Part shown: one piece after another, positions 466-50,305 of the stretch
Numbering within the stretch: position 1 is the first letter of the stretch
Layout of the letters: each line of letters begins with the position of its first letter
Virus record (IMG/VR): IMGVR_UViG_3300049988_000286
Coordinates: 352,001-416,000 of that record
From: a virus
Lineage: Duplodnaviria > Caudoviricetes
Length of the DNA stretch: 64,000 nt
Strand: one strand, 5' to 3'
Translations under genes and position numbers: made by a program
Notes under the pieces: model-generated
Told to the model about the DNA's origin: nothing
Database searches by the model: none
The model's input: only the letters and a program-made list of their open reading frames with translations

Positions 466-1017
466 CTAAATCGCTTTGACGAACGATCCATCTGGCACCA
501 CGGCGGAGACGCTCCCCGCATCCTCGCCTTCATTGTCGTAGTAGCATCCCCGATCAGCCGTTCCCATGGCTTTCTGTTTGATCATCCAGCGATTGGCGTG
601 ATCGTCAGTAAGGGGATTATTGGGTTTGTTCTTCATCGCGCCGACGATGTGGTAACCTTGGATCGACGGTCGAGCAGTCAGGGCGACTTGTTCCCGGTTA
701 CTAAAGACGGCGCGCTCAAGGCCGTTCTCGGGCAGGAAATCTTCTACTGGGAGCCGCGCGTTGAACCCAGTGGCCCATCTTCCCAAGCGTTTGAGGGTCT
801 GGCTACCGGCGAGCATGGTCTTGCCATACTCGGAACCACCGTCCCAATCGTGACCATCGGCCCTTACGCCGATGCGTGCTTCGAGGGCTTCCCGTGCCGC
901 GTCCCGTGATCCGAGATGGAGGCCGTAATGGGAGCCGCGAAGATCACCCGATGGTGAGCCATGCCAGAACACGATCGGGACGGAGGCTTCGCAGATGAGG
1001 TCGATGAGGTAGCGCAT
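466..1017 (-). CDS. late gene with internal-protein-like N-terminus and possible ADP-ribosyltransferase-like core
   Basis: Starts MRYLIDLICEA, 4 nt after TAAATA; VFWHGS and LHLGS motifs. Confidence 0.7.
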   Translation of the reverse strand: MRYLIDLICEASVPIVFWHGSPSGDLRGSHYGLHLGSRDAAREALEARIGVRADGHDWDGGSEYGKTMLAGSQTLKRLGRWATGFNARLPVEDFLPENGLERAVFSNREQVALTARPSIQGYHIVGAMKNKPNNPLTDDHANRWMIKQKAMGTADRGCYYDNEGEDAGSVSAVVPDGSFVKAI

Positions 1018-1021
1018 CGGA

Positions 1022-1027
1022 TATTTA
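1022..1027 (-). promoter_or_regulatory. late promoter TAAATA
   Basis: TAAATA-4 nt-ATG(1017). Confidence 0.75.
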
Positions 1028-1031
1028 GCGC

Positions 1032-1060
1032 TTGACCGAACTCTGCTAATCAATTATAGC
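1032..1060 (+). promoter_or_regulatory. sigma70-type early promoter containing CGAACT
   Basis: TTGACC-17 nt-TATAGC. Confidence 0.7.
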
Positions 1061-1083
1061 GGTGGTCGAAACGGAGACACCCC

Positions 1084-1278
1084 ATGCTCGCAGTCAACGA
1101 TCTCGTCCACGCCACCATTATCGAGAACGGCTACTGGAAGGATTCCTGCAAGGGGAAGATCGTCGGCGAGACCGCCAACTTCTGGATTGTCGAGAGCCAT
1201 CACTGGCGCTTCAACAACAAGACCAAGCGTTTCGCCAAGGAGGGCGGCAACCTCTCCAAGCGCGAGCCGAAGGTTTAA
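1084..1278 (+). CDS. hypothetical protein
   Basis: GGAG SD, lies downstream of a promoter. Confidence 0.7.
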   Translation: MLAVNDLVHATIIENGYWKDSCKGKIVGETANFWIVESHHWRFNNKTKRFAKEGGNLSKREPKV

Positions 1279-1490
1279 CCCCTCCACGCCAGCCAATACA
1301 TCAGTGCGTCGGCTTCATCGCGAAACACTATTCTCCCCTCCGACACATGGACGAGCGACGAAGTATTGTCCGCGCACCATGCTATCGCCGCCCGCGCCTC
1401 TTGCGACCATCTACCGAAGGGGTGATCGACCTCGATCACCCACTCCTTGACGAGGGTCCGATACATCCGGGCAGCGCGAGGCGGGGTCAT
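1275..1490 (-). CDS. paralog family A small protein
   Basis: C-terminal IVFRDEADALMYWLAW. Confidence 0.7.
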   Translation of the reverse strand: MTPPRAARMYRTLVKEWVIEVDHPFGRWSQEARAAIAWCADNTSSLVHVSEGRIVFRDEADALMYWLAWRG

Positions 1491-1530
1491 GCGGGTTCGT
1501 TAGATCACGCGAGGTCGAGAAAGCAAATAG

Positions 1531-2721
1531 CTATTTCTTGATGCGCGTGAGGAACAGTTCCTCCCTCCATCCCTCGCGGGGCTCTCCTTGCTTCAAGGTC
1601 ACCTGATCGACAGGAACAAGAACCCACGAATCCGGTAGGTCCATCTTGCGCGCAGTCGAGACGCCTTCGATGCCCTTGTCCTCGAAGAAACCGGTCCACG
1701 AGAGGATTGACGATCGTGCGTTACCCTCGTTGGCGTATTTCTTCGCGGACTTGAACGTATCGACCATGCGGACATGATCCTTCCGATCCGTGTAGTCATA
1801 GTCGAACCCGGCGAAATACTTCCCGTCCTCGCCGTCGCGAAGGACATAGACGATCGACTCCGGTATCGAGATTGCCTCAACGGCATCCTCGATCTGTCGA
1901 TAAGAAAGAGTGAAGCCGTTCTGCCACCAAGGATTTTCGCCCCAATACTCCCACGAGGGAACACCCCTGCCACCCGATGAACCATCCGGACGCGTGTGCT
2001 TGATGTGATACTCGATCTGGCTCTCATCGAGATCGACGCGGATGGCGCGGCCGGAGTCCTTTTGCCGGTCCGCGCTGGTCTTCTTGTCCGACGATACAGT
2101 GAATTCGAGACCCGCCGGTACCGTGAAGATCGGCATCTCATGCGCGTGCTCATACGGGTTGTCGTAATTGTATGGCTTTCCCGCCGCGCGCCAAGCATCC
2201 GCCTCCGCGACGAGGCGATGATCACGCTCTGGATAGACCCACGCAGTAATGGTCACCGGCCGGGTAAAGCGCCAGCGCGAGCCCTTGACCATCTCCTTCA
2301 GCTTGGAAACCTTGGCCTCCTTTGCTACTGGCGGGTCGATCTTGGTTACGGCCCCGATGTGGGCAACCGATGATCCCCAGACGACGAACCGCAAGTCGCC
2401 GCCGAAGCGATCGATGACCCGCTGTTCAGCCGCCGCCGCTTCTGGGAACCGTTTTTTGATCGCACTCCATTGCCCATCGAACAGGCGGTAGCTCTCACCC
2501 CATGTCTTCCAAAGGTCATGCCCGGCGAGTTCTCGCAGCACCACATGCTCTTCTTCCGGGATGAGGTCTTCAAGCGAATGCGGTCTCGTGATCTGCGTGA
2601 CGCGCCCCTTTGTGGCGCGCTTCGAAGGCTGGCAGAACCGTTCCGAGAGCACAAACCCCGCCGAATAGATGGGGGTGCCCTTGGGTGCGCTCACGTAGTC
2701 GCCAATTTTGATATCGCTCAT
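1531..2721 (-). CDS. hypothetical protein
   Basis: Long ORF starting MSDIKIG, TTGACC promoter upstream. Confidence 0.8.
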   Translation of the reverse strand: MSDIKIGDYVSAPKGTPIYSAGFVLSERFCQPSKRATKGRVTQITRPHSLEDLIPEEEHVVLRELAGHDLWKTWGESYRLFDGQWSAIKKRFPEAAAAEQRVIDRFGGDLRFVVWGSSVAHIGAVTKIDPPVAKEAKVSKLKEMVKGSRWRFTRPVTITAWVYPERDHRLVAEADAWRAAGKPYNYDNPYEHAHEMPIFTVPAGLEFTVSSDKKTSADRQKDSGRAIRVDLDESQIEYHIKHTRPDGSSGGRGVPSWEYWGENPWWQNGFTLSYRQIEDAVEAISIPESIVYVLRDGEDGKYFAGFDYDYTDRKDHVRMVDTFKSAKKYANEGNARSSILSWTGFFEDKGIEGVSTARKMDLPDSWVLVPVDQVTLKQGEPREGWREELFLTRIKK

Positions 2722-3534: not shown

Positions 3535-4113
3535 TCACTCCCCTCCCGTTTCAACAACCCTCGCCTGTGCCGCCATCGTTTTGGACACGATCACCTCGTC
3601 GTCGTTACCACCGTCGAGGTAGAGGAGGATGTCGCGGAGCGGCAGGGTGAGTTCAACGATCCACCACGCTCCCTTGCGTTTCGGGAGGACATAACCGCGT
3701 GTCGCATGGGTGCCATCGTAGGTGGTGAAGGTCGCGCAACGATCCCGCCGGGCGGTGAACGATACCCAGTCGCGGTTCTGGCGGTCGATGTGCTGGGGGT
3801 CGTACACGCCTCCGCCGCCGCGCCAAAGCTTGATCGGTGTATCGAGGGCAGCTTCGAACATCTCCGGAGTGGCGAAGGGTGTGGCCCAATTCTGGACTTT
3901 CATGATTTCGTTTGCGAAGAAGACGATCCGGGATGAGGTCTGGAACTTGCGGTTCCTCGATGCCCGGTTGATGCACGTCACGGCGTTGCGGTTGATCCAT
4001 GGCAGCACGGCGTCGTGGAAGCGTAAGCGGGCTTCTTCCGCCTTGTAGTGATTGAGCAAATCCCAGATCGAGAGAAGGTCTTGGTCTTCGCAGAGGTTGA
4101 TCCACTCACGCAT
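3535..4113 (-). CDS. late gene with internal-protein-like N-terminus, R-S-E type ADP-ribosyltransferase-like
   Basis: MREWINLCED start; LWRG, WVSFT and DDEVIV motifs in ART order. Confidence 0.65.
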   Translation of the reverse strand: MREWINLCEDQDLLSIWDLLNHYKAEEARLRFHDAVLPWINRNAVTCINRASRNRKFQTSSRIVFFANEIMKVQNWATPFATPEMFEAALDTPIKLWRGGGGVYDPQHIDRQNRDWVSFTARRDRCATFTTYDGTHATRGYVLPKRKGAWWIVELTLPLRDILLYLDGGNDDEVIVSKTMAAQARVVETGGE

Positions 4114-4543
4114 GTTCGTCCCTCACGAAAATCCTCGATCTGTCTGCCTTAATCGCCAACATGCCGATGCGCTTCAATCCCGCGAAACGATCGGCGAGAC
4201 TTTCGAGGTGATCCCCGATCCCCATCACGAAGCATCCGCACCCTGCTGCATAGATGGTAGCGGCGCAAGTCCAGTCGGTTTCTTGTTCGATACCGGAGAT
4301 CGACGTGCCGATGATCATCGGGTAGCCGAGGTTGCCGAGATCACGGTGCGGGGCATCATCGGCGTTCCAGACTAGCAGATCATCAGAGTAGCCGCCCCGG
4401 AGCGTCTGATGCGGTGCTGCCTTGAGGGCGCGCATGATCTCTCTCGCAGAGGGGTTGCGGTAGAGCATGATTTCGCGACCCTTACTGATGGGGAAGACTT
4501 CCCGCTTCTCCATGAGGGCGATGGTATCGATGAGGTCTCGCAT
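4106..4543 (-). CDS. late gene with internal-protein-like N-terminus
   Basis: MRDLIDTIALME start; middle gene of a TAAATA-driven triplet. Confidence 0.75.
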   Translation of the reverse strand: MRDLIDTIALMEKREVFPISKGREIMLYRNPSAREIMRALKAAPHQTLRGGYSDDLLVWNADDAPHRDLGNLGYPMIIGTSISGIEQETDWTCAATIYAAGCGCFVMGIGDHLESLADRFAGLKRIGMLAIKADRSRIFVRDEHA

Positions 4544-4544: not shown

Positions 4545-4982
4545 TTAGGCAAATTTCACGCGAAATTGTGTTGTATCATCGTCTTCGAAGTCGCCGAATG
4601 TGACTTGCCCATTATATTGTGCCGCGAGCTTCTTTGCTAGTTTCTCGTAGACGGACGCTCTGGCGGTATTGTCATGCCTCGGTGTGGTGAAATATATCTC
4701 CTTCGGAGAGAACTTATCGTGTAAGTCTTTGACGATGGTGATCACCGTAGCGAACACCGCAAACGGAGTTGCTTCATTAGTCGGTTTGAGGGAGAACTTG
4801 GTGCCCCCTACCATATTTCCAAATTGGATATCCCATACTTTGTTATGCGCGCGAGCGACGAAGGCGTATGGTTTATTCTTGATCTCGAATTTGGCCAAAG
4901 CGTATTCGTGATCGATGTCCTCCCAACGCCATACCTGCTGTGAATCAAAGGCTTCTCTGATGATGTTGATTAGGTCTCGCAT
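4545..4982 (-). CDS. late gene with internal-protein-like N-terminus, possibly GNAT-like; paralog of 14203-14748
   Basis: MRDLINIIREA 4 nt after TAAATA; FATVITIV and RASVYEKL motifs. Confidence 0.75.
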   Translation of the reverse strand: MRDLINIIREAFDSQQVWRWEDIDHEYALAKFEIKNKPYAFVARAHNKVWDIQFGNMVGGTKFSLKPTNEATPFAVFATVITIVKDLHDKFSPKEIYFTTPRHDNTARASVYEKLAKKLAAQYNGQVTFGDFEDDDTTQFRVKFA

Positions 4983-4986: not shown

Positions 4987-4992
4987 TATTTA
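4987..4992 (-). promoter_or_regulatory. late promoter TAAATA
   Basis: TAAATA-4 nt-ATG(4982). Confidence 0.75.
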
Positions 4993-6381: not shown

Positions 6382-6387
6382 TAAATA
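6382..6387 (+). promoter_or_regulatory. late promoter TAAATA with SD-containing leader
   Basis: 21 nt to ATG 6409, AAGGAG in the leader. Confidence 0.7.
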
Positions 6388-6408: not shown

Positions 6409-6903
6409 ATGCGCACCTACATCGACATCATCAACGAAGCACAGGAGCAACTCAACGAGTTGTTCGGCCTCTCCTCGAAGGAGAAGGCTGCGAAAAGCTT
6501 GGCTGCGACGGGTGACGAGATCAAGGCAGCTATGCAGATCAGACACACGATCGAGAGCGCGAAAGCCGTTGATGCTCTCGCAGTCAAGGCGCTGGGTCAA
6601 GGCGCTGATGCTGCGTTCTTCCAGAAGCTGGGTTTCGAATCGCGGATCAATCCACAGGAAGCACAGGGCACCTTCTATGTCCCCGATGTGTGGACCGATA
6701 TGAAGTCGGTGCATGAGTTCCAGACCGTCTACGGCGTTGAGCGCCTCGCTGGTCCGGTGAGTCAGCAGAACAAGATCGACGAATTCTCGATCGAGCGTCG
6801 CTACCCGGATCGCACCAACAAATGGGTGCCTCGTCGTGCATTTCAGGCGTGGATCAGCCGAGCGGACGGCAATCACGAGAAGCTGATCTTCCGCCTCAAA
6901 TAA
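6409..6903 (+). CDS. late gene with internal-protein-like N-terminus
   Basis: MRTYIDIINEA start. Confidence 0.8.
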   Translation: MRTYIDIINEAQEQLNELFGLSSKEKAAKSLAATGDEIKAAMQIRHTIESAKAVDALAVKALGQGADAAFFQKLGFESRINPQEAQGTFYVPDVWTDMKSVHEFQTVYGVERLAGPVSQQNKIDEFSIERRYPDRTNKWVPRRAFQAWISRADGNHEKLIFRLK

Positions 6904-9697: not shown

Positions 9698-10359
9698 TGT
9701 CACGACGACAGGGGGAATTGTTGAAGAGCAGTCCGGTGGCGTGGGTCAATCATCTGTATGATCTTCCCGGCGACGCGCCTGTGCGCCTCTACAGCTATCA
9801 GGGCGAGGATGCATGGGCGCTCGCGGAGGAGCGCGGCTACTGGACCGGCAGTCCCCACATCTGGGACGAGGACGGCGACTACGGCTTTGGTCCCGCCTAT
9901 GATTGGATGCGCGATCAGATGCGCGCGAGGATCACTCATTTCTCCGGTGACTATCCGATGTGGGGCTGGATCAAGCGCCCCTCGACGAAGCCGAAGCCGC
10001 GCCGTTATCGCGGTCTTAGTGAACGGATCAGGCTCACCGTTGAGGTGCCGAGATCGCGCATCCTCTTCTCCGACTATGAGACGTGGCACTCGGTGCTCAA
10101 TCGTTCTCTCCTTGCACGCACAGAGGAAGAATGGGAGCAACACTGCGTGGCCTATCCCGAGCATTGGTCGATGCTCGATGCCGATTATACGGCACGCTAC
10201 CTCGCGTCGATCGAGCCAAGCTGGCACCGCTGTCTCGGATTCATCCATGACCCCGATCCCCTTGTGAGATACTGGCAGGGGCGGACTGACCGGTTCATCG
10301 TTCAAGCATGTGTGGACCGTTTTGAGTGGAGCGAGGTTAAGGCAGTGCGGCGGTTCTAG
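9697..10359 (+). CDS. DUF3841-family protein
   Basis: AYDWMRDQM, YPMWGW and ILFSDYETWHSVLN motifs. Confidence 0.75.
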   Translation: MSRRQGELLKSSPVAWVNHLYDLPGDAPVRLYSYQGEDAWALAEERGYWTGSPHIWDEDGDYGFGPAYDWMRDQMRARITHFSGDYPMWGWIKRPSTKPKPRRYRGLSERIRLTVEVPRSRILFSDYETWHSVLNRSLLARTEEEWEQHCVAYPEHWSMLDADYTARYLASIEPSWHRCLGFIHDPDPLVRYWQGRTDRFIVQACVDRFEWSEVKAVRRF

Positions 10360-10883
10360 TCGAACAGGTCCATGATTGATTTCATCGAAGTGGACTGTGC
10401 CTTCGTCACACTGGCGGAGCGTTCCGGCTTACGCAACGCCTCGATGGTGTGCTGTCTAACTATCTCGATCAATTCACCGCTAAGGTTGAAGTGATCATCA
10501 GTCAGGCGGGTGATCAGTTGATTGGGGATCATGACCTTCCTGTTGAGCAAGACGGCGTTGAAGGCCTCTGTGGCGCTGCTACCGTGCTGGATCAGCACCG
10601 CGATCATCAATGCGGCACTTCTACTCTGCCCCGCAAAACAATGGATAACAAGGCGATCATCATCGGTCATATCGCGGGTGTGATCAAACATACGGTGGAG
10701 ATCATCCATTGTCGCTGCCCCGTCTTGCTCGACATGGACATCAGCGATCGGAAGGATAAGATGATGAGACCCGCGCGCCTTGAGACCGATCTCCGGTGAA
10801 ACTGCGGAAACAATCTTTGTCGGCCAGTTGCGATCAAACTCCAATTCAGCCTCCGAGAGACCAAGAACCTTAAATCCAAACAT
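10356..10883 (-). CDS. dual-specificity/tyrosine phosphatase-family protein
   Basis: HCFAGQSRS CX5R P-loop. Confidence 0.85.
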   Translation of the reverse strand: MFGFKVLGLSEAELEFDRNWPTKIVSAVSPEIGLKARGSHHLILPIADVHVEQDGAATMDDLHRMFDHTRDMTDDDRLVIHCFAGQSRSAALMIAVLIQHGSSATEAFNAVLLNRKVMIPNQLITRLTDDHFNLSGELIEIVRQHTIEALRKPERSASVTKAQSTSMKSIMDLFD

Positions 10884-14202: not shown

Positions 14203-14748
14203 TCAATTTCTTTTCAGGTCAGCGAGCATCGCCTCGATGTCGTTCCACTCCTCGTCGGTCATCGGTGTAACGGGTTCGTTCGAGGAAGGGGCAGGGGTGG
14301 GCGCGACATAGGCCTTGGCGGGCCGTTCGAGGTCGTAGGTCGTGTAGGTGCGTGACTTCTTCGGCTCTCCCGCCATGTATTGAGGGAATTCCTGCATGAG
14401 GCGCATCATGAGCTTCGGGTATAGACGATTACGCGATCCCTCGTCGTTCTTGGCCGCGTAGGTGATCCAACGCGGCTCCTGCGCAGCGATGAACTCGCGA
14501 GTGATCTGCATCACAGTGGCGAGCACGGTGGCGGCGGAACCGGTGCCGGTGAGATCAAGCGTGCCGTTGCGATAGAAGGAGAGTTCCCACCGCTGGCGCT
14601 CGTAATACTTCTCCTTGAACAAGACTTTGAACAGACCGTCGCCGATCTGGAACTCTGCCATGATCTCTTGGGCAGTCTCATCCTCCCAATGTGTCCAGTG
14701 GAAGGGTTGAACTTGATTGAAGGCCTCCGTGATCTCGTGATATCTCAT
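14203..14748 (-). CDS. late gene with internal-protein-like N-terminus, possibly GNAT-like; paralog of 4545-4982
   Basis: MRYHEITEA start; LATVMQIT and RNRLYPKL motifs. Confidence 0.75.
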   Translation of the reverse strand: MRYHEITEAFNQVQPFHWTHWEDETAQEIMAEFQIGDGLFKVLFKEKYYERQRWELSFYRNGTLDLTGTGSAATVLATVMQITREFIAAQEPRWITYAAKNDEGSRNRLYPKLMMRLMQEFPQYMAGEPKKSRTYTTYDLERPAKAYVAPTPAPSSNEPVTPMTDEEWNDIEAMLADLKRN

Positions 14749-15959: not shown

Positions 15960-15965
15960 TATTTA
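15960..15965 (-). promoter_or_regulatory. late promoter TAAATA
   Basis: TAAATA-4 nt-ATG(15955). Confidence 0.75.
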
Positions 15966-20432: not shown

Positions 20433-20966
20433 TTACTCTCCCGCCTCGCGAGCGACGATCATGACGTTCTCGGGGCGGAAGACCACGATCTGACCTCTGA
20501 TCTGGCTCGACGCGTCATAACCCCCTACGAAGTCCGTGTAGGCAAGGAAGCGATTGAAGTCGGTCATACGCTTCGCCATGTCGAGGAAGTCGTCATAGTC
20601 ATAGCGGCTGTTTGTGTCAGGACCGAAGGTGTCATCCATGAACAGGCAATGGCCCTCATAGGCGGCGCGCATCTTTGCTTCGCGGTCACCGAGATCGAGT
20701 AGCGGACCCTTCTTGATGTAGCAGGAAAGGACGAAGCCTTTGGACCTCGCCCATGTGTTGGCGAGCCATTTCACATCGGTGACATAGACGCCCTGACCGA
20801 GTTCATCATAGCCTCGTGTCTTCGGCAGCCGAAAACCAGTGAAGCGGCGGTTGGTGCCGTGGTAGAGGATACGGGTGGTATCGAAGCCTTGTGCCTCTGC
20901 TTCGGCTTGCATTTTGGGAGAGATCGTCTTCATGATCCGCTCGCAGAGAATTTCATCGAAACGCAT
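20433..20966 (-). CDS. late gene with internal-protein-like N-terminus, H-clade ADP-ribosyltransferase-like (ART-PolyVal-like)
   Basis: MRFDEILCE start; LYHGT, GQGVYVT and QIVVF motifs. Confidence 0.75.
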   Translation of the reverse strand: MRFDEILCERIMKTISPKMQAEAEAQGFDTTRILYHGTNRRFTGFRLPKTRGYDELGQGVYVTDVKWLANTWARSKGFVLSCYIKKGPLLDLGDREAKMRAAYEGHCLFMDDTFGPDTNSRYDYDDFLDMAKRMTDFNRFLAYTDFVGGYDASSQIRGQIVVFRPENVMIVAREAGE

Positions 20967-20970: not shown

Positions 20971-20976
20971 TATTTA
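20971..20976 (-). promoter_or_regulatory. late promoter TAAATA
   Basis: TAAATA-4 nt-ATG(20966). Confidence 0.75.
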
Positions 20977-23438: not shown

Positions 23439-23919
23439 GTGTCGGGAGTGCGACCGCGAATTTGGTAGCAGAGAGGCCCTTGGTCAGCACGTGCGCGACA
23501 AGCACACGGAAGCAGCCGTGGAGGATGGGTTCGTCTCTGCCGAGCAGCGCGAGGTCTTTGAGGTAGATCGTAGCTACCTCCGCACCTCTCATGGCGTTCA
23601 GCGCCTTTCCGTGCTGATGACCTTCGACGCTGATACGGAAAAACTCTACCACCGCGATCTTCGCGTTGCCGCCGCCTATCTCCTCGACATTGCGACGCGG
23701 TATGAGGGTGCGTTTTTGGAGGAGCACTGGACCGGCTACGAGACGATGGAGATGCGCTTCGGTCTCTACCGTGAGGAAACCGACGAGGAATATCGTGATC
23801 GGCTCGAAACGGAAGCAGCACGCGAGGCAGAGCAGCGGTCCAAGATCGCGCGGGAGAGGGAGCGTGCGAACATCGACAAGGCTATCGCGGGTCTTCAGCA
23901 GAAGCGCGCTCGCCTCTAA
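23410..23919 (+). CDS. protein with an N-terminal C2H2 zinc finger
   Basis: CRECDREFGSREALGQHVRDKH. Confidence 0.7.
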   Translation: MVKGVTFDFKCRECDREFGSREALGQHVRDKHTEAAVEDGFVSAEQREVFEVDRSYLRTSHGVQRLSVLMTFDADTEKLYHRDLRVAAAYLLDIATRYEGAFLEEHWTGYETMEMRFGLYREETDEEYRDRLETEAAREAEQRSKIARERERANIDKAIAGLQQKRARL

Positions 23920-23922
23920 ATA
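23917..23922 (+). promoter_or_regulatory. late promoter TAAATA
   Basis: Overlaps the upstream stop; 4 nt to ATG 23927. Confidence 0.7.
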
Positions 23923-23926: not shown

Positions 23927-24361
23927 ATGGATATCAAGCGGCTAATAGATGAGGCGGGGTTCGACGAATACGATCACGACACGGGGACTTCCGGCTTATG
24001 CGCGATGTTCGCACTTGCCCTATACCGCGTCGCGATCAAGGACCGTCCCCGCCTCATTCTATTAGGCTCAATCCGAGACGGTAAGCCCGCAATGGATCGC
24101 CGGGGCGGTATCTACTGGTCCCACGCTGCCGTAGAGATTGCGGGGCGCTTCTACGACATCGAAGGTGAGCAGCAGCGCGAGTGGATGATCGGCAATTACC
24201 TGTGGGGACTGCCACGAAATGCTACACCCGCCTTGCACGAATTGGCCCCGCCGGAATTCATTTCACAGATCAGGGGGACGCCCGCTGCGGTCGATTGGCC
24301 CTTCTACATTTCTTGCCGTGATCGTTTGATTAAAGCTGCGGGGACGATCTCCCAGCATTAA
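23927..24361 (+). CDS. late gene with internal-protein-like N-terminus and papain/transglutaminase-like Cys-His-Asp triad
   Basis: MDIKRLIDEA start; GLCAMFA, WSHAAV and FYDIEG motifs. Confidence 0.7.
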   Translation: MDIKRLIDEAGFDEYDHDTGTSGLCAMFALALYRVAIKDRPRLILLGSIRDGKPAMDRRGGIYWSHAAVEIAGRFYDIEGEQQREWMIGNYLWGLPRNATPALHELAPPEFISQIRGTPAAVDWPFYISCRDRLIKAAGTISQH

Positions 24362-27981: not shown

Positions 27982-30717
27982 ATGGTTGATTATCGCCCCA
28001 CCGTGACTGTTCCGAAGACGCCGCTGCCCACGAAGGCGCGGATCGCCGATGAGCCTCGTCAGGTCGAGGCGTGGGCGGGTCTCCATGATCGCCTCGCTGC
28101 GAAGAACGAGGGTCGCCCAACTTACCTCCTCCACGACGGCCCCCCGTACGCGAACGGCAACATCCACATGGGGCACGCGCTCAACAAGGTGCTCAAGGAC
28201 GTGATCTGCCGGGGGCAGCGCGCTCTCGGCTTCGATGCTCGTCTGCACGCGGGGTGGGACTGTCGTGGTCTTCCAATCGAGTGGAAGGTCGAAGAGGATT
28301 GGCGCAAGCAGAAGCGTGACAAGAATGCCGAGCCGGAAGCATTTCGGCAGGATTGCCGCGACTATGCGGCACGGTGGGTGGATGTCCAGAAGGAGCAGTT
28401 CAAGCGGCTGGGGATCGTCGCCGACTGGGAGTCCGCGCCCTACGGTCATGGTTACCGCACGATGTCGCCCGAGATGTCGAGCCTGATCGTTTACCGCTTT
28501 CACCGCATGGTGGAGCGCGGCGATGTGTATTCGGCCAAGAAGCCGGTGTTGTGGAGTCATGTCGAGCGCACCGCTATGGCGGAGGCGGAGACCGTGGATC
28601 GCGAGCATCAGGTCGAACAGGCGTGGGTGACCTTCCGGATGTTCGCAGGGCCGCTCAAGGGCGACGATCTCCTTGTCTGGACCACCACGCCTTGGAGCCT
28701 TCCGAGCAATGTCGCGGTCGCGTACAACCCTGACATCGCCTACGGGCTTTACGAACAGCGCGGACGCCGGTTCGTGGTTGCCGACAGTTGTGTGGAACGC
28801 GCGCTGCAAAATGATTATCAGCGCCTCCGCGACATCGATCCGAAGACGGACTTCCCGCGCCATGCAGAGCATCCCCTGAACGATCTCGGCTACCCGGTTG
28901 GTGAGGACTGCGTGTCGCGGATCATGCCGGCATCCTTCGTCCGCGACAGTGCGGGAACGGGTCTTGTCCATGTCGCCCCCAGTCATTCCCGTGATGACTG
29001 GGAGGCTTGGAAGGCGCTCGATCACACGTTGACCTTCCCGACGACGATCAACGAGGATGGGCGCTACCACGACAGCCTTCCGCTGTTCGGCGGCACGGCG
29101 GTGGTCAAGGGCAAACGCCTCGGTCCCGCGAACGAGATGGTGCTCGATGCCATGGCGGAGCGTGGTACGCTCTACCGGCGCGAGACTGCTCCCCTGACCT
29201 TGCAGCACTCTTGGCGCAGCGACGCGGTTCTCCTCACGCTCGCCACTGATCAGTGGTTCATCCGCGTCACCGGGGAGGGCGGCGTGGTTGAACGTGTGCT
29301 TGCGGGATTGGCGGAGGTTGAGTTCTCCCCATCCAGCGGCGGCACGCGCATGGCCTCGATGCTGCGCGATCGTCCCGATTGGCTGGTGTCTCGTCAGCGC
29401 CTGTGGGGCACCCCCATGGCCATCTTGGCGCATCGTCGCACCGGCGAGCCCTGCCGTGATCCGGCCGTCTTGGGAGCGATCCATCAAGAGTTGATGGATC
29501 GTGGGGCGGATGCGTGGTGGAGCGAGTTCTCGGTTGAGGACATGTTCGCAGCGATCGGTCGCCCCGACGAGGCCAAGGACTGGCGGCGCGTCGATGACGT
29601 GCTCGATGTCTGGTTCGATTCTGCGTGTGTGCACGCCATCACTGGTGAGCGTGCCGATCTTGTCGTCGAGGGGAGTGATCAGAGCCGTGGCTGGTTCCAG
29701 AGCAGCGCTCTCGAAGGCATGGCCAACGATGGCGTGCTCCCGTACCGGGAAGTGCTCACCCACGGTTTCGTCCTTGACGGATCGGGGCGCAAGATGTCGA
29801 AGTCGGAGGGGAACGTCATTGATCCCATGACGGTGGTAGATCGTCTTGGCGCGGATGCGGTTCGTGTCTGGGTAGCTGCCACCGACGTTCGCGAAGACCT
29901 TCGTGTCAGTGATGCGGTGTTAGCCACCCATGCCGAGACGGTTCGCAAGGTCCGTATCACGCTTCGCTACCTCGTCGCGGCGCTGGCGGGTGTTACCGTT
30001 ACGCACGATCGGGTGATCGTCGATCCCCTCAACCGCTATGTGCTCAATCGTGTCGCGCATACCAGTGACGCGTTGTTCGCCATGCTGGCGGAGAAGGACT
30101 TCACCCGCTACGTGGCGACGATCGCGAATTTCTGCGCCAATGATCTCTCCGCCCTGCTGTTCGATGCCCGCAAGGACATCCTCTACTGCGACGGGCCGAG
30201 TGCGCGACGGGATGATTATCTCGCAACGCTCTCGGAGGTGTTTGAGCATCTGGTTCGCTGGGCGGCTCCCGTGATGGTTTTCGCGGCGGAGGAGATGTGG
30301 CAAGCCCTCCATCCAGAATCGAGCGTGCACGAGCAAGACTGGCTCCATCCCCACTGGTTGTGGAACGACGAGCGGTTGATGGAACGGTGGGCGAAGGTGC
30401 TCGATTATCGCTCGGAGATGTTGGGCAAGATTGAGGAAGTGCGTGCGGCGGGTGCGGTGAAGTCTAGCCTTGAATGCCATCTCACTGTCTTCGCCGATCC
30501 AGCGGCACGCCAGCACATGCTTGGGATCGATATGGCGGAACTCACCCTCACGGCTGGGGTGGATATCCGCTCCTTGGAGGGGCGCTTTACCGCACCGACC
30601 AACACTGTGGTGGAGCGTGTCACCACGCCGCGCTGTGACCGGTGCTGGCGGCACGTCGAGGTCGAGGCTGTCGAGGACTCGCATCTCTGTGATCGGTGCG
30701 CGGAGGTTGTGGCGTGA
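27982..30717 (+). CDS. ileS: isoleucyl-tRNA synthetase, type 1
   Basis: PYANGNIHMGH, WTTTPW and GTGLVH editing motifs, SRQR, KMSKS, C-terminal CDRC..CDRC zinc finger. Confidence 0.95.
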   Translation: MVDYRPTVTVPKTPLPTKARIADEPRQVEAWAGLHDRLAAKNEGRPTYLLHDGPPYANGNIHMGHALNKVLKDVICRGQRALGFDARLHAGWDCRGLPIEWKVEEDWRKQKRDKNAEPEAFRQDCRDYAARWVDVQKEQFKRLGIVADWESAPYGHGYRTMSPEMSSLIVYRFHRMVERGDVYSAKKPVLWSHVERTAMAEAETVDREHQVEQAWVTFRMFAGPLKGDDLLVWTTTPWSLPSNVAVAYNPDIAYGLYEQRGRRFVVADSCVERALQNDYQRLRDIDPKTDFPRHAEHPLNDLGYPVGEDCVSRIMPASFVRDSAGTGLVHVAPSHSRDDWEAWKALDHTLTFPTTINEDGRYHDSLPLFGGTAVVKGKRLGPANEMVLDAMAERGTLYRRETAPLTLQHSWRSDAVLLTLATDQWFIRVTGEGGVVERVLAGLAEVEFSPSSGGTRMASMLRDRPDWLVSRQRLWGTPMAILAHRRTGEPCRDPAVLGAIHQELMDRGADAWWSEFSVEDMFAAIGRPDEAKDWRRVDDVLDVWFDSACVHAITGERADLVVEGSDQSRGWFQSSALEGMANDGVLPYREVLTHGFVLDGSGRKMSKSEGNVIDPMTVVDRLGADAVRVWVAATDVREDLRVSDAVLATHAETVRKVRITLRYLVAALAGVTVTHDRVIVDPLNRYVLNRVAHTSDALFAMLAEKDFTRYVATIANFCANDLSALLFDARKDILYCDGPSARRDDYLATLSEVFEHLVRWAAPVMVFAAEEMWQALHPESSVHEQDWLHPHWLWNDERLMERWAKVLDYRSEMLGKIEEVRAAGAVKSSLECHLTVFADPAARQHMLGIDMAELTLTAGVDIRSLEGRFTAPTNTVVERVTTPRCDRCWRHVEVEAVEDSHLCDRCAEVVA

Positions 30718-32218: not shown

Positions 32219-32444
32219 CGGGCGTGACCTTGACGCTGCTCGCGGGCACCCAACGACCGTTGACCTGTAGCTGGCACGAGTAAGTCACCCATGTATCGGT
32301 TCCATTGGCGACTACCCGCCACTGAAAGCCGCTCTCGCCCCAATCAGTCCGACAGGCGGCAGCCGCCCGCTTCCTTGAGTATTCGATCTCCTCCTTTGTC
32401 AGAGAACACCCCGAGAGGAGGAGGAGCGTGAGGAGATACCTCAC
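32211..32444 (-). CDS. putative lipoprotein
   Basis: MRYLLTLLLLSGC lipobox. Confidence 0.7.
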   Translation of the reverse strand: MRYLLTLLLLSGCSLTKEEIEYSRKRAAAACRTDWGESGFQWRVVANGTDTWVTYSCQLQVNGRWVPASSVKVTPDA

Positions 32445-34582
32445 GCCACCCCTTCCTCGATCAGGACTGCGGCATCGGCGAGATCGAATACACGATCCGC
32501 CTCTTCCCGCGTCCCCACCACCTCACCGCGCGCCCGCGCATGGAGCATCGCGACATCATAGGCGGTGGGCTTTCGCTCATTGAGCGTCATCACCGCCTCC
32601 GTGATGGCTTTCTGCTTCTCGTTCTGACCCACCACCGCACCGTAGCGCGAGGTGCCGCCCGAGATGTCGGCGAAGATCACCTTTCGCTCCACGAGGTCGA
32701 AGAACAGCGGCATGTGAGCCGTCACCGGGGCGTTGACCTCAAACTTGAGAGCAACGCTCTCCGGCTCATAGGTCTTGCCCGACGCCACCGCGTCACGCTC
32801 CATGAATCCTGCGTGGCAGGGGAAAGTGCTGAACTTCTGTCCCGTGAAGGAATTGATGTTCATCGCCACATAGCGGGCCGTCGATTTCAGCTTGCCGAGA
32901 TCGATATCGATGAACTCCGACGCCCCGTTGGGGGCATCCTGAATATCACCCGAGTGGACAACGGCACGATCACCCGAATACAGGTTAGTGTAGGCGACAT
33001 GGCCGCGCGGCGCGAACTCCTCATCCAAGTACACAGCCGAGAGATCGACATCGACGCGACCCGCCCCGCCATTCTCCCAGTAGATGAACAGGCGCACGAC
33101 ATCACCCGAGAAGGCGAAACGCGATCCCTTGTTGACCATCACGGATGCCGAAGAGTCGCCGCGACGGTTGAAGGGCAGGATGATGTCCTTGAGCGCGGGA
33201 TCGACGAATACGCGACCCAATGCCTCGCGATCACGGACACGGGACTGCAACTCCTCGTCGATGGTGACGAGAAGACGAACCTTCGCATCGGTGGGCAGCG
33301 GCGGACGCGTCTCCGCAACGATCTGCGCTTTGTTGACCTGACCCTTGGGGAAGAACACGCGCTGCTTGAGGGCGTCGCGCGATTCGAGATACTTGCGAAG
33401 CTCGAACAACATCTTCTCGGTAAGGCGCGGGGCCACCTGCTTGAACCCCGTGGTGACGATGCGGGAATCGTCCGCGCTGCGGAGCATGAAGTCCAGCTTG
33501 CGCGCAAATTCACCGGGGCGCTCCGCCATCAGGCGAACGAAATCGAAATCGATCGCGCGGGCACGAATCCCCTCCTCCATCTGACGCGTGAACGTCACGA
33601 TGTTCTTGGGATCGTTGCGCAGACGATCGAAGGCACGCGCCACATTGGGGAACGCCTTGCGGTTCTTCGCCGTGCCGGGATTGAGACGCTCACCAAGGCG
33701 CAGCCAGCGCTCGCGGCTGCGCATCATGTCTTCGGCGAGATTGGCGAGCGGCTCCAAGAGCGTGAGCATTCCACGACGCTGCGAGGTCGAAAGCTTGAAC
33801 TTGACGTTCGCCTTCAACGACAGATCGGCCTTGTCATCGCTCAAGAAGGTAGCGATGCGCATGACATCGGTGGCTCCGGAGAGACCATCCCGCACCGCGT
33901 CTGCGCCGAACAACTGGTAGGCGAACGGCAGCGTCTCCTTGAAAAGCGGACCCTCGAAGCGCAGCGCGACCTTGCGCGATACAAGATCACGCAGAACTGC
34001 CTTCTCGTCCTCGGACAACGATGACTGGCGTGCCAGCATCGCGTTGCCCTCCGTAGCGAAACCATCGCGCGACAGGCCAAGCGGCTTGAGCGGCGTCACC
34101 GCCGAGAAAGCCACACGCTCGGTCTCCGGCGAACCCAGTTCGGGCACCGCGCGCTGACAGATCGGGCACGCACCGAAATCCGACACATCGAAGAGCGCGG
34201 AGTCGATCACGTGGCCGCACGACAATGCCGTGAGTGTGTTGCCGCCAAGACGGATGTCGAGCGCCGATGCCATCCAGCCGATCACGCGCTTCTCCATGTA
34301 GTCGCGCTGATCCGGGGTATCGTAGGGGAAGCCGTTGAACAGCTTGGTGCGCTTCTTATCCGCGCCAGAGATGACCGAGAGATCGGAGACGATCTGGTCG
34401 CGCAGCGCGCGAAAACCGTTATTCCCCAGTCCACGCATGGCGTCGAGTAGCGGCGCGTCGGGGGCATAGCCCAACATGGCGACTTCGAGTGTGAAAGCGC
34501 TAACCAGACGCTCATCGGTCTTGGCTTCGATCGCGGGCTGCGTGACTGCAACCTTACCGTAAAGCTTGAGCGTCTCGATCAT
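32441..34582 (-). CDS. large TerD-domain stress-response protein
   Basis: C-terminal VDVDLSAV...HSGDIQDAPNGASEFIDIDL TerD motifs after a helical region. Confidence 0.8.
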   Translation of the reverse strand: MIETLKLYGKVAVTQPAIEAKTDERLVSAFTLEVAMLGYAPDAPLLDAMRGLGNNGFRALRDQIVSDLSVISGADKKRTKLFNGFPYDTPDQRDYMEKRVIGWMASALDIRLGGNTLTALSCGHVIDSALFDVSDFGACPICQRAVPELGSPETERVAFSAVTPLKPLGLSRDGFATEGNAMLARQSSLSEDEKAVLRDLVSRKVALRFEGPLFKETLPFAYQLFGADAVRDGLSGATDVMRIATFLSDDKADLSLKANVKFKLSTSQRRGMLTLLEPLANLAEDMMRSRERWLRLGERLNPGTAKNRKAFPNVARAFDRLRNDPKNIVTFTRQMEEGIRARAIDFDFVRLMAERPGEFARKLDFMLRSADDSRIVTTGFKQVAPRLTEKMLFELRKYLESRDALKQRVFFPKGQVNKAQIVAETRPPLPTDAKVRLLVTIDEELQSRVRDREALGRVFVDPALKDIILPFNRRGDSSASVMVNKGSRFAFSGDVVRLFIYWENGGAGRVDVDLSAVYLDEEFAPRGHVAYTNLYSGDRAVVHSGDIQDAPNGASEFIDIDLGKLKSTARYVAMNINSFTGQKFSTFPCHAGFMERDAVASGKTYEPESVALKFEVNAPVTAHMPLFFDLVERKVIFADISGGTSRYGAVVGQNEKQKAITEAVMTLNERKPTAYDVAMLHARARGEVVGTREEADRVFDLADAAVLIEEGVA

Positions 34583-35042: not shown

Positions 35043-35777
35043 ATGTTCAACCAATCCATTCAAGAATTCGTCGAAGCAGTCAGTCCCCAGATGAATATCT
35101 GGCACAACACTACACGGAAGGGTGATACCGGCGCGGGACATACCTGTGAGACAATTATCTTCGGGAAGGAAGAAGACAACAAATCTCTCGCGGACTTCAT
35201 GGGTTTCGAGTGCAAGTCGGTCCTCGCCACATCGAAGAACGCGCGAGTCCGATTGCTCAATTTCGCAGGAGGGGCGGAGGCAGAATTGTGTAAGCGTTTT
35301 GGGAAGGTGAGCCCCACGCGAGGTTACAATTCCTTTACCCGCCAACTACGATGCAACAAGCCGATCCGGGCGAACGGCTCCTCGATTGCCCTCGTCATCG
35401 AAGATAATGAACTCTCCCTACTCGTCGATGGACAAGAGCGCGTCGGAGAATGGCTTGTTGATGCGCCGGGGCGCAGTATTGCAACCAAGGTCGCTGACAA
35501 GATCGCCGATATGGCGCTGATCCGCTACGAGAAGCGCATCCAAGATGGTTTGCAGCAATATCGCTATACGGGGGTGGACTTCCACACCGGTTTGTCTCTT
35601 CCGCGCCTCATCACCGCTTTCGGCGCACAACACATTGCGGTAGAATTCCGCTACACGGACAAGAAGGACTATGGCACGAGTTTCAACATGTCCATGCGCC
35701 ACATGGAGGGATACTGGCCCCATCATACGACGGTAACGTGGGGCGATGGTCCGCCGAGACTCACTGCTAGGCGATAA
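35043..35777 (+). CDS. MvaI/BcnI-family endonuclease-like protein
   Basis: GAGHTCE...EDN...ADFMGFECKS (PD-D/ExK type). Confidence 0.7.
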   Translation: MFNQSIQEFVEAVSPQMNIWHNTTRKGDTGAGHTCETIIFGKEEDNKSLADFMGFECKSVLATSKNARVRLLNFAGGAEAELCKRFGKVSPTRGYNSFTRQLRCNKPIRANGSSIALVIEDNELSLLVDGQERVGEWLVDAPGRSIATKVADKIADMALIRYEKRIQDGLQQYRYTGVDFHTGLSLPRLITAFGAQHIAVEFRYTDKKDYGTSFNMSMRHMEGYWPHHTTVTWGDGPPRLTARR

Positions 35778-39432: not shown

Positions 39433-39438
39433 TAAATA
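39433..39438 (+). promoter_or_regulatory. late promoter TAAATA
   Basis: 4 nt to ATG 39443. Confidence 0.75.
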
Positions 39439-39442: not shown

Positions 39443-39691
39443 ATGCGAGACTTCATCGACATCATCGAGAACATGGCGCAGAGCGAGCGTGGTCCCTACT
39501 TCGACCGCGTATGGTCCGCGTATGAGAAAGTGCGCGACCGCTCGCAACCTGATGCGGTGGCGCTCCTAGACCCCAAGACGATCGAGCACGTTCGCCGTCG
39601 CCATCACATCAGCTCGAACCAGCGTCAGCGCGCCCGTTTGAAGACCGATACCGATACGGATAATTCGGTCTTCGATGGCGGACAGGATTAG
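39443..39691 (+). CDS. late gene with internal-protein-like N-terminus
   Basis: MRDFIDIIEN start. Confidence 0.75.
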   Translation: MRDFIDIIENMAQSERGPYFDRVWSAYEKVRDRSQPDAVALLDPKTIEHVRRRHHISSNQRQRARLKTDTDTDNSVFDGGQD

Positions 39692-48114: not shown

Positions 48115-48483
48115 TTATGTCAGACCAAGTTCCTGCATGTCAACCGAAGGAACGGTCCAATTCTTTATCCTTTTACCCCAGATGGCCTTCATCCTCGGTA
48201 AAGTGAGGGGCTCGATCCGAAGAGCGCCGCAATCAGCACCCAAGTAGTCCGCAAGAAACTCATCTCGCGACTGGCGTAATCCTCGTGCATCACCGAAAAC
48301 ATCCTCGCCGAACATGACACCAACATGTCGCGGAACAGTGTCCCAAACATCGTCGAAGATTCCTACTAGGGTTCCGCCATGAAGATCGTGCAGCGTCGCC
48401 GCCATCACCATGCATTCACCGCGTTGATAACGCTCTAGCGCCGACCTGTCATCATCGAAAGCGTCGATCTCAAAAATTCGCAT
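48115..48483 (-). CDS. late gene with papain/transglutaminase-like triad; paralog of 23927-24361
   Basis: MRIFEI start; GECMVMA, PRHVGV and FGDARG motifs. Confidence 0.7.
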   Translation of the reverse strand: MRIFEIDAFDDDRSALERYQRGECMVMAATLHDLHGGTLVGIFDDVWDTVPRHVGVMFGEDVFGDARGLRQSRDEFLADYLGADCGALRIEPLTLPRMKAIWGKRIKNWTVPSVDMQELGLT

Positions 48484-48487: not shown

Positions 48488-48493
48488 TATTTA
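48488..48493 (-). promoter_or_regulatory. late promoter TAAATA
   Basis: 4 nt to ATG 48483. Confidence 0.75.
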
Positions 48494-48582
48494 GTGGTGC
48501 CCTCGGAAGGAATCAAACCTTACGTTTCCGACGTACCAAGTCGGCGTTCTATCATTGAACTACGAGGGCGTAGTTGTTAAAC

Positions 48583-48741: not shown

Positions 48742-48941
48742 GGGTTCTTCTTCAACTGGCGCTGCAACTGTTCGCCGATGCCGCGAATGGTATCCGCGCC
48801 GGAATAGAGGATCGTCGTCTGCTCACCATTGCTGTGCAGCCAAGTCACCAGTGTAGAGTCCTCGGTGACGAAGTTGGCGTTCTCGATGTAGGCGTCTTCC
48901 AGCGCCTCGAAGACGGTCTTGGTAGGGGCGATATTTGTCAT
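48738..48941 (-). CDS. hypothetical protein
   Basis: AAGGGGG SD. Confidence 0.65.
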   Translation of the reverse strand: MTNIAPTKTVFEALEDAYIENANFVTEDSTLVTWLHSNGEQTTILYSGADTIRGIGEQLQRQLKKNP

Positions 48942-48978
48942 CCCCCCTTATACCTCGACGGGTCGCCGCGCGGCAATA

Positions 48979-49281
48979 TTAAGCCGTGGTGCGACCAGCG
49001 AACATCGTTGAGCAGAGGACGAAACCGGTCTCGTCATCCAGCATAACGGCGATGCGATCATGCTCAACCACAACGACCGAGTGGAAGATCGCATTCTCGT
49101 GGCACCACCGCTCCATCTCTACGGAGAGGGGCGTGGCACCATCGCCAGTAAGGCCGATCATCAGGCGCTCCGCGTTGAACGTGATCTCGACCGACAGAGG
49201 AGTGTAGAAAGCCCTTGCCGACAACATCTTGTTGATCACCGCATCGACGCTTTGATTCCAGAGATGCGCTTTCGATTTCAT
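48979..49281 (-). CDS. paralog family A-like protein
   Basis: RWCHEN and VMLDDETGFVLCSTMF motifs; TTGACA promoter. Confidence 0.65.
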   Translation of the reverse strand: MKSKAHLWNQSVDAVINKMLSARAFYTPLSVEITFNAERLMIGLTGDGATPLSVEMERWCHENAIFHSVVVVEHDRIAVMLDDETGFVLCSTMFAGRTTA

Positions 49282-49305
49282 CCCCGGTTGGTAATCATGC
49301 GCGAA

Positions 49306-49803
49306 CTATTTGTCAAGGTTTTTCCGGCGGTGCCAATGCTCCTCCATGTGGCAAGTTGGACAAAGGAATTCGAGGTTTGCCATTTCATCAGAACCACCCT
49401 TCGATCGCTCTACAATGTGGTGAACCTGAACAATCTCCGGAATCTTCTCATAGGAACAACGTTCGCATCGTTCCGCACCTTTGAACTCAATCAGCCTAGA
49501 CCTTATTGAGGCGTGTTTTACAACGGCGCTCTTCAGGGGTTTACCTGTCTGTTTATAGTTTATACCGGCACGATGTTTGTTTGAACAGCGTTTGGAGCAG
49601 GTGACACGACTAGCCGCCCCCATGAAGGTCTCTTGGCACACAGGGCAGAGTTTTGGCTTTGAACAGTGTTGTCCAAAGCACGCTCGACTACAGAATACAC
49701 CCACTTTGTCGGTGCCCATACGAGATGGTCGGCGATAAATCGCTTTGCTGCAAACAGAACATTCCGTGTTTGGTGGCGATATGTAACCGGGCTTACTAGG
49801 CAT
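49306..49803 (-). CDS. HNH homing endonuclease
   Basis: CERC...VHHI...GG...NL..LCPTCH plus N-terminal CxxC/CSxxC repeats. Confidence 0.85.
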   Translation of the reverse strand: MPSKPGYISPPNTECSVCSKAIYRRPSRMGTDKVGVFCSRACFGQHCSKPKLCPVCQETFMGAASRVTCSKRCSNKHRAGINYKQTGKPLKSAVVKHASIRSRLIEFKGAERCERCSYEKIPEIVQVHHIVERSKGGSDEMANLEFLCPTCHMEEHWHRRKNLDK

Positions 49804-49851
49804 ACTCTGCAAGGTATGCTAATTTCGCCCGGCAGAGCGATATTAAAATGA

Positions 49852-49941
49852 TGGCGGAGGGCCGAGGACATGCTCCCCACACGATTGCCCGTGCGTTCGG
49901 TTTTCGAGGCCGACCCAGCGCGCTTGTCTGGTTGACCCTCC
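49852..49941 (-). tRNA. tRNA-Ser(CGA), atypical elbow
   Basis: GGAGGGT/GCCCTCC acceptor, CTCGAAA loop, long variable arm, T-loop AGCATGT, CCA. Confidence 0.75.
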
Positions 49942-49954
49942 GTAACTGTAATCT

Positions 49955-50305
49955 CTATGCCATATTCGGCAAGTTAGGCGCAATCGGGCACCGCGATATC
50001 CTTACCAGAAAGTATCGCGCAGCCACCAAAGCTTTGAGCCGAACCTTGATCGGGACATCCGTCTTCTTGGCGACGCGGAGGCATCGAGCCACGAAATGAA
50101 TATCGGCGATATGTTGGCGACGACGCTTGTCCGCTGCATCGCCGCGATAACTCTTGTCATACTCGCAGTCATGCTTGAAGCACGCTTTGTCGAGTTCATC
50201 GATGGGAGCGCCGCCGCAATTACCCGGCCCGCAATAGTTGCCATGGAAGCGGATGAAGCGCTTCGTTGGTGCTAATGGGGCTTCGAACAGATGGCGGCTG
50301 CGCAT
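49955..50305 (-). CDS. phospholipase A2-like late protein with internal-protein-like N-terminus
   Basis: MRSRHLFEA start; YCGPGN Ca-loop, DKACFKHDCEY (HD) and ADIHF motifs. Confidence 0.8.
   Translation of the reverse strand: MRSRHLFEAPLAPTKRFIRFHGNYCGPGNCGGAPIDELDKACFKHDCEYDKSYRGDAADKRRRQHIADIHFVARCLRVAKKTDVPIKVRLKALVAARYFLVRISRCPIAPNLPNMA

Follow-up and report, generated by a model that had tools for sequence, protein, structure and literature searches.

A candidate capsid-targeting sequence at the N-termini of about 60 dispersed, predicted late proteins in a T4-like megaphage genome

A stretch of 64,000 nucleotides from an uncultured phage (the window; bases 352001-416000 of the 499,572-bp IMG/VR virus record IMGVR_UViG_3300049988_000286, GC content 57%) contains predicted late genes whose proteins begin with a similar short peptide. 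This shared N-terminus is best explained as a propeptide of the T4 capsid-targeting type, a reading to which we assign a probability of about 0.7. About 60 genes, or about 7% of the gene set, carry such a tag. They are dispersed through the 500-kb genome, and the window holds about a fifth of them. An earlier note on the window had proposed a capsid-targeting tag from 11 N-termini. That reading is supported here by the head machinery encoded in the genome, the register shared with T4, selection at the protein level, the portability of the tag and the TAAATA box shared with the head genes.

The N-terminal tag and its late promoter

Genes were called with a home-made codon-usage caller, which yielded 792 genes, 95 of them directly behind a TAAATA box. 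Because this caller rewards starts behind TAAATA, the tag was recounted in a six-frame scan of all ATGs that made no use of gene calls. This genome-wide scan gave 61 tag matches compared with 0 in the reversed genome, and 59 of the 61 were in open reading frames (ORFs) of at least 50 residues. The strict form of the tag, MRxx[ILVM]x[ILMVT]h..E, begins 31 proteins; its rate of occurrence within proteins predicts 0.25, and N-termini with residues 2-12 shuffled predict 0.35. Three classes of tag were distinguished: M[RK]x[WLFY]I[DN][LI]h(x)E (class 1, also written M[RK]xx[ILVM]x[LI]hE, ~30 genes), MLLxDLFE (class 2, 9 genes) and MRxx[EQ][IL]xE (class 3, ~18 genes). In every class the tag occupies the first 8 to 10 residues, directly after the Met, and ends in [LI]-x-Glu with the Glu at residue 8-10. 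For leaderless late genes, [LI]xE with its Glu at residue 8, 9 or 10 was found 17, 19 and 7 times, respectively, compared with ~1 expected per position. The layout is amphipathic, with a basic residue 2, hydrophobic residues at about 4/5 and at 7/8, and an acidic or amide residue 6. The residue after the Glu is mostly A, R, D, G or S. Nothing in the tag had the character of a signal peptide or of a membrane span.

The genome contains 171 copies of TAAATA, 102 of which have an ATG 4 or 5 nucleotides (nt) downstream. The consensus is C-TAAATA-NNNG-ATG, with a C ahead of the box and a G ahead of the ATG; from this spacing about 100 late mRNAs should be leaderless. Examples of the box in the window are at 1022-1027 (-), 39433-39438 (+) and 51577-51582 (+). 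The portal, protease, scaffold and capsid protein genes have the same TAAATA box followed by a 25-45-nt leader and a ribosome-binding site (RBS), and the box is therefore regarded as a T4-style late promoter. Going by this promoter motif, the tagged genes would be expressed late, alongside the head genes. Tag and promoter are strongly associated. An MR start was found in 39 of the 95 genes directly behind a box compared with 46 of the 697 other genes, and for the strict tag and the leaderless promoter the odds ratio was 27 (p = 2e-16). In the scan without gene calls, 42 of 103 TAAATA-N4/5-ATG sites carried a tag.

Since these 42 sites account for most of the 61 tag matches, and the promoter context is stereotyped in the C before the box and the G before the ATG, the shared codons could themselves be a nucleic-acid feature, either a downstream element of leaderless mRNAs or a mobile promoter-plus-start cassette. 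The codons speak against this. Arg2 of the tag is encoded by CGC (11), CGA (8), AGA (7) or CGT (3), and Leu7 by CTC, CTA, CTG or TTG. Identical tag residues share a codon in 0.52 of pairs compared with 0.46 expected from the codon usage of the genome, and the amino acid substitutions are conservative. Because the synonymous sites are free, selection appears to act on the protein rather than on the DNA. In addition, 61 of the 103 leaderless starts are tagless, structural-looking genes included, some with tail-fibre- or baseplate-like N-termini as judged by eye without a family search. Of the 31 genes with a strict tag, eight have no N4/5 box, and these are mostly RBS-led and lie inside operons. 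Tags also occur in phages that lack this promoter: in a 64-kb fragment of another phage (45% GC), where the promoter architecture is essentially absent, consecutive RBS-led genes start MLLTNLFE, MRAIEFTE, MRNWINLLE, MRASELLSE and MRIREIME. In view of the synonymous freedom, the RBS-led tags and the tags in phages without the promoter, a nucleotide-level signal or mobile cassette was rejected, and we give it very little credence.

In the window, all 11 N-termini of the earlier note translate as written at the positions and on the strands given for them, including the one on the plus strand at 39443, and all are in TAAATA-driven units. Seven have the box exactly 4 nt before the ATG. In the following, a slash marks the putative cleavage point after the terminal Glu. 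The gene at 466-1017 (-; 183 residues, MRYLIDLICE/AS, box 1022-1027) has an ART-like body (ART, ADP-ribosyltransferase). The leaderless gene at 4545-4982 (-; 145 residues, MRDLINIIRE/AF, box 4987-4992) has a body resembling DUF6934 / phrog_16075 and heads an operon in which the second gene (4106-4543, -, 145 residues) carries a longer variant of the tag, MRDLIDTIALME/K, and the third (3535-4113, -, 192 residues, MREWINLCE/DQ) has a body of no assigned family. The gene at 6409-6903 (+; 164 residues, MRTYIDIINE/AQ) is in the same register as T4 MKTYQEFIAE/A; its box (6382-6387, +) lies 21 nt upstream of the ATG with a GGAGA RBS between. The gene at 14203-14748 (-; 181 residues, MRYHEITE/AF, class 3) is the last of an operon 15955 > 15551 > 14748 headed by a box at 15960-15965 (-).

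The remaining listed genes are all leaderless. At 20433-20966 (-; box 20971-20976) a 177-residue protein starts MRFDEILCE/R and has a body resembling ART-PolyVal / DUF3990. At 23927-24361 (+; box 23917-23922) the 144-residue protein carries a variant without the MR start, MDIKRLIDE/AG, and gave a weak YunG-like Pfam match. An 82-residue protein at 39443-39691 (+; box 39433-39438) starts MRDFIDIIE/NM, and the 116-residue protein at 49955-50305 (-; box 50310-50315), MRSRHLFE/AP, has a phospholipase A2 (PLA2)-like body. The gene at 48115-48483 (-; 122 residues, MRIFE/IDAF, box 48488-48493) is leaderless and late, and its short start is a weak variant of the tag; MxxFE[IL] starts of this kind are present in a relative, the IMG/VR genome G005. 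Two further genes can be set beside the listed ones. A leaderless late gene of 74 residues, which the earlier note had not listed, reaches into the window at 63865-64000 (-), with its start 89 nt past the window end; it begins MRYFEITS, which is class-3-like. A 244-residue protein at 35043-35777 (+) starts MFNQSIQEFVE/AV, with a T4-like QEF[IV]xE, and is a possible member; it has no TAAATA directly upstream. The earlier note had also described the tagged genes as often placed on the strand opposite to their surroundings, which amounts to a mild enrichment only.

Two other units behind the late box were observed in the window. At 51536-51548 (-), TATAAATA is followed by 5 nt and then by a short ORF starting MNTTTSSTTISW, which shows that the late box also heads tagless units. 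At 60382-61143 (-), a 253-codon ORF starting MKTLLQE lies behind TAAATA-N4-ATG (box 61148-61153); its negative codon-usage score (-13.8) points to a gene that is non-standard or was acquired recently.

Head machinery and the T4 precedent

Among the head proteins encoded are a T4-type prohead protease (Pfam Peptidase_S77, PF03420, E = 8e-27; genome 213874-214494) and a gp23-type major capsid protein (PF07068, E = 1e-72). The counterparts of this capsid protein in Sinorhizobium phage Phosso (469 kb) and in the Rak2/Asteriusvirus jumbo phages share 61-66% identity with it. Based on the S77 protease, the gp23-type capsid protein and its identity to the Phosso/Rak2 group, the genome is by sequence that of a distant T4-like megaphage. 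The scaffold gene in the head module, g320 (genome 214596-215840), has the N-terminus MPKTIEEILNE/T. The capsid protein reads ...RRSLME/AASSG, 2-3 residues ahead of the segment that aligns to mature T4 gp23, and its propeptide thus likely ends L-M-E/A. Both head proteins therefore show an [LI]xE motif near the N-terminus. Just past the window, at genome positions 416556-418865 (-), three adjacent genes start MKVITSLAE, MDTFEQMLNE and MDRKFTSLLDE. The last of these encodes an 82-residue protein that matches PHROG 11854 ('virion structural protein, head and packaging', E = 3e-14), and the three may be extra head-core proteins. That match, at genome 418617-418865, was the PHROG 'virion structural protein' match among the tagged set; its tag is doubtful, and it was dropped as support.

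In T4, the internal proteins are a diverse set in which the capsid-targeting sequence (CTS) is the sole conserved feature; the CTS loads them onto the scaffolding core, gp21 cuts after the Glu and thereby removes the CTS, and the CTS alone suffices to package foreign proteins (PMC3012670; PMC5694885). The T4 N-termini were read from AF158101: MKTYQEFIAE/A for ipII and ipIII, MELITELFDE/D for Alt, MLKEQLIAE/A for the gp22 scaffold, MEGLIE/A for gp67 and ...FLTE/AEIGG for gp23. The ten-residue tags of the present genome, such as MRTYIDIINE/A and MRYLIDLICE/A, match the T4 CTS register position by position. Both are at the extreme N-terminus and of about ten residues, with a basic residue 2, a hydrophobic or aromatic residue 4, an acidic or amide residue 6, hydrophobic residues 7/8, and an [LI]-x-E end followed by a small residue; both are carried by otherwise unrelated proteins, whose genes are late in T4 and predicted to be late here. 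The [LI]-x-Glu end would fit the cleavage rule of gp21. The two phages also share an S77 protease, a gp23-type capsid protein and a scaffold whose N-terminus is itself tag-like. The likeness extends to Alt, an ART-type enzyme packaged in the T4 head, with a short [LI]-x-E leader that is close to class 2 MLLxDLFE; at least two tagged proteins in the window are ART-like.

There are differences as well. The consensus sequences here are MRxWI[DN]L[IV]E and MLLxDLFE, mostly 8-9 rather than 10 residues long. The genes number about 60, roughly ten times the T4 repertoire, and are dispersed in 500 kb instead of forming one internal-protein locus; most have leaderless mRNAs. The predicted cargo is not basic. 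The ART-like proteins are of ~180 residues and of the H-Y-E or PolyVal type, with no sequence homology to the 682-residue Alt.

By analogy with T4, the tagged genes would be transcribed late from TAAATA promoters together with the head genes, mostly as leaderless mRNAs with the tag Met as the first codon. The amphipathic tag of 8-10 residues would dock each protein on the scaffolding core during prohead assembly, and the Peptidase_S77 protease would then cut after the terminal Glu of [LI]-x-E, as it would in the capsid propeptide and the scaffold. The mature enzyme would be kept inside the DNA-filled head, enter the next host with the DNA and act there before any phage gene is expressed. The predicted cargo comprises ART-fold proteins, a PLA2, T7 0.7-like kinases, GNATs and many proteins without assigned function. 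For the tagged proteins of this phage we infer docking, cleavage, packaging and injection from their sequences. Kinases of the T7 0.7 type and ARTs serve in host takeover and normally work as soon as infection begins. Their predicted late synthesis would make most sense if, as proposed, they are packaged.

The [LI]-x-E site and the S77 protease would also suit a propeptide that is removed to release activity. In that case the tag would be an inhibitory or timing device that keeps toxic enzymes inactive until late, with no packaging involved, and many of the bodies (ART, PLA2, kinase) are indeed enzymes able to harm the infected cell. In the T4 model, however, the protease acts inside assembled proheads on substrates that are already inside (PMC5694885), and a detached helix of 8-10 residues is unlikely to inhibit ~40 unrelated folds. 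A role as an inhibitory propeptide thus seems quite improbable.

A portable, late-specific tag under selection at the protein level would fit any sorting signal, so the peptide could also be an address or docking signal for another destination, such as the neck, the tail or baseplate lumen, the membrane, a secretion route or a phage chaperone. The AlphaFold2 (AF2) model of the 466-1017 protein, in which the tag is a free amphipathic helix, agrees with this, as do relatives that have the same head genes without the expansion. Against it, the [LI]-x-E at a fixed distance from the Met and the register shared with the T4 CTS, Alt and scaffold are features peculiar to the prohead-protease system; the tail- or baseplate-looking leaderless late genes are tagless, and the tag resembles neither a signal peptide nor a transmembrane segment. 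We consider another address unlikely and retain the capsid-targeting reading.

Many internal head proteins are known from other giant phages. In the phiKZ-like phages SPN3US, phiKZ and 201phi2-1, many head-internal proteins are cut after Glu by a T4-related protease, the heads contain about 50 protein species, and the propeptides of SPN3US are long and dissimilar (PMC5694885). The phiKZ-like system differs from the one described here in that its propeptides are mostly >100 residues, its sites are A/S/G-x-E, and it has no common short tag and no gp22-type scaffold. The consensus of the present tag also differs from the MK[ST]LxEFIxE and MSKRYIIDKLFE leaders of other jumbo phages. In a full-text literature search, no paper was found that links capsid-targeting sequences to huge phages besides the studies of the phiKZ-like SPN3US. 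The principle is known from T4; what differs here is the consensus, the scale of about 60 genes, their dispersal in leaderless units and the types of cargo, including a PLA2.

Protein bodies behind the tag

The bodies were compared by BLASTP after removal of the first 14 residues. At E < 1e-3 few links were found, and the proteins fell into ~40 unrelated groups, mostly singletons. Pfam and PHROG family searches were run on 60 tagged proteins; the larger ones mostly gave no match in either. The searches found two T7 gp0.7-like kinases and two GNAT acetyltransferases, and weak matches to Kinase-PolyVal, PFIN and a ParB-like family. The GNAT-like enzymes postulated in the earlier note thus exist among the tagged proteins, elsewhere in the genome than the N-termini that it listed. 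Its PLA2 was confirmed: the protein at 49955-50305 matched Pfam PF08398 (Phospholipase A2; PF08398 / PF00068) with 30.8 bits, above the cut-off of 23.9, and has the calcium loop YCGPG (YxGxG) and the active-site motif CxxHDC (CFKHDC) with the catalytic His-Asp.

The claim of ART-like enzymes is also supported. The AF2 model of the 466-1017 protein has a pLDDT of 92, with residues 2-10 as a separate low-confidence helix and a globular body from residue 17. The protein had no Pfam match, and a Foldseek search of its model against PDB gave no significant match. In an exhaustive structural alignment (VIA-align), ART-fold proteins dominated the list (RES, ParT, MbcT, PARPs, diphtheria toxin, exotoxin A and Arr), with a modest best Z of 5.5. 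Collection of homologues yielded 45, and H19, Y64/Y160 and E165 were invariant in a set of 43 homologues. From the model, the body looks like an ART fold of the H-Y-E type. The 20433-20966 protein resembles Pfam ART-PolyVal (PF18760) with 29.5 bits (E = 1.4e-6), under the cut-off of 31.2. An ART-type [FYW]HG[ST] motif just after the tag was found in 6 of 62 tagged proteins compared with 3 of 730 others.

The tag also changes partners. A paralogous family of seven members outside the window (genome 43826-44968, 176397-178297, 244197-246953, the 301674-3080 region, 454875-456221 and 459812-460981) shares GINPxSxYxTPLGVYAYPL and IHxNEPxQAVFF segments, often with RSNPxLN after the tag, and was without a match in Pfam or PHROG. 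The members begin with MRIVEI, MFLQDLFE, MNTFRELIE, MRYHNLVE, MRAIQIIE or MILLDLME. Because each of these paralogues carries its own variant of the tag, five different ones by one count, the variants appear to be interchangeable. Homologues outside this genome start MKIYELLE or MHLRHLFE or have long tagless extensions. Likewise, close homologues of the 466-1017 body start MREFINIILE, MRKFIDIISE, MREYIDILTE or MRQFINIVTE, and others begin directly at the first body residue.

In a survey of 80 related IMG/VR loci, the 466-1017 domain (FWHGSPSG) was inside long ORFs in 34, of which 17 had at least 500 residues upstream. It followed a short [LIVM]xE leader (e.g. MKTFKQFIYE, MKRLKEIIFE) in at least 14 of the loci and a short tagless leader in 21. 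The long ORFs are probably polyvalent virion proteins. One effector domain thus appears in two settings, as part of giant proteins of polyvalent type and as a small protein of its own behind an address-like leader. Effector domains of the same types, ART-PolyVal and Kinase-PolyVal, are found in the polyvalent proteins of phages and conjugative elements, which are thought to be delivered along with the DNA. The present arrangement differs in having one small protein per domain, each with its own tag, and not one giant fusion.

Some of the tagged genes are paralogous, and the six proteins with [FYW]HG[ST] have it just after the tag, which is what would be seen if the N-termini were functionless remnants of one old family whose bodies diverged past recognition. 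The folds and families identified are, however, different ones (PLA2, GNAT, kinase, ART, DUF6934), homologues of one and the same body have different leaders or none, and a remnant evolving neutrally would not be the stretch conserved best across 60 proteins. Common descent of this kind is hardly credible. The bodies that the earlier note called unrelated are so for the most part: the 4545-4982 and 14203-14748 proteins are paralogues (the DUF6934 / phrog_16075 pair), and the 466-1017 and 20433-20966 proteins are both ART-like. For the whole set, the sequence comparisons indicate largely unrelated bodies, the exceptions being a few paralogues and a diverged ART theme.

Relatives and the possible extent of packaging

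Tags of this kind were found in IMG/VR relatives that encode the same protease and capsid protein. Relative G002 (58% GC), which has 22 leaderless TAAATA starts, encodes proteins starting MRNLITLVE and MKTYADIIVE, both behind a leaderless TAAATA, as well as MRRYIDILME and MRFRELFE, and G005 (38% GC) has a cluster of ~12 M[RK]xxE[IL]xxE genes. A homologue of the 466-1017 protein is encoded at 10001-10582 of a 563-kb metagenome contig (JGI, L199), where 6 of 8 leaderless starts were tagged in the 20 kb viewed. The public gene call for this homologue begins at an ATG overlapping the late promoter (ATGCCTAAATACCGCATG). Read from TAAATA-N4-ATG, the protein begins MREFINIIME, and this leaderless second ATG is probably the true start. 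Automatic annotation may systematically hide such tags. Taken together, these sequences point to the tag system being a clade feature of variable size that is hugely expanded in the present genome, and probably in the 563-kb relative too.

Cultured relatives gave a different picture. In Phosso (capsid protein 66% identical), one TAAATA-N4-ATG site, no back-translated class 1 match and no enrichment of N-terminal [LI]xE were found. In the whole genome of phAPEC6 (capsid protein 61% identical), there was at most a slight excess of tags at N-termini. For phAPEC6, 62 virion proteins from published mass spectrometry were matched by mass to the genome; those with tag-like starts were gp182c (MRFRDLTE, one peptide), gp162c (MKYNQLQE), the scaffold and gp228c. 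Because phAPEC6 has no clear tag expansion, this virion-proteome test is nearly uninformative. The phage has a radiation-sensitive inner body, the proteins of which were not identified (PMC7247149). Eight RCC1-repeat virion proteins of phAPEC6 detected by mass spectrometry (MK817115, 1-14200 and 351393-352535) share the start MLPF[AG]RM[IV]KYGN; the eight are paralogues, but this start may be an assembly signal of another kind.

Several observations weigh against the capsid-targeting reading. Phosso and phAPEC6, the two closest cultured relatives by capsid protein, lack the expansion, so similar head machinery does not require a large tagged set, and the tag-like starts in the phAPEC6 virion proteome are few. 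About 60 cargo species is far beyond the handful of T4. The tagged proteins are not more basic than the others (median isoelectric point 6.1 compared with 5.8), whereas T4 internal proteins are basic, although their isoelectric points were not computed here. Some variants of the tag are weak, among them MRIFEI, which the earlier note had listed, and MRYFEITS. For this uncultured phage, the assignment as a CTS is a prediction from sequence. That most of the ~60 tagged proteins are loaded into the capsid and injected is a more tentative proposal than the nature of the tag, and we give it slightly less than even odds.

Proteins that enter the host together with the phage DNA act ahead of all expression of phage genes. 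They are leading candidates for roles in anti-defence and host takeover, but in uncultured phages they are hard to recognise. If the tag works as the T4 CTS does, it would be a label for injected proteins that can be read from sequence, with ~60 of them in this genome, mostly without assigned function. The injected proteome of an uncultured megaphage clade would then be predictable and could be mined for host-takeover and anti-defence enzymes, and protein cargo would be one use to which megaphages put their additional coding capacity and the room in the capsid. If most of the tagged proteins are injected, no phage known would have a larger pre-made arsenal of effectors. In the engineering of related phages, the tag could also find use as a portable signal for packaging, a purpose that the T4 CTS has already served.

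Two further genes of the window were recorded. A phage-encoded isoleucyl-tRNA synthetase is at 27982-30717 (+; Pfam tRNA-synt_1, E = 3e-107), and a 713-residue protein with a prokaryotic RING finger is encoded at 32441-34582 (-).

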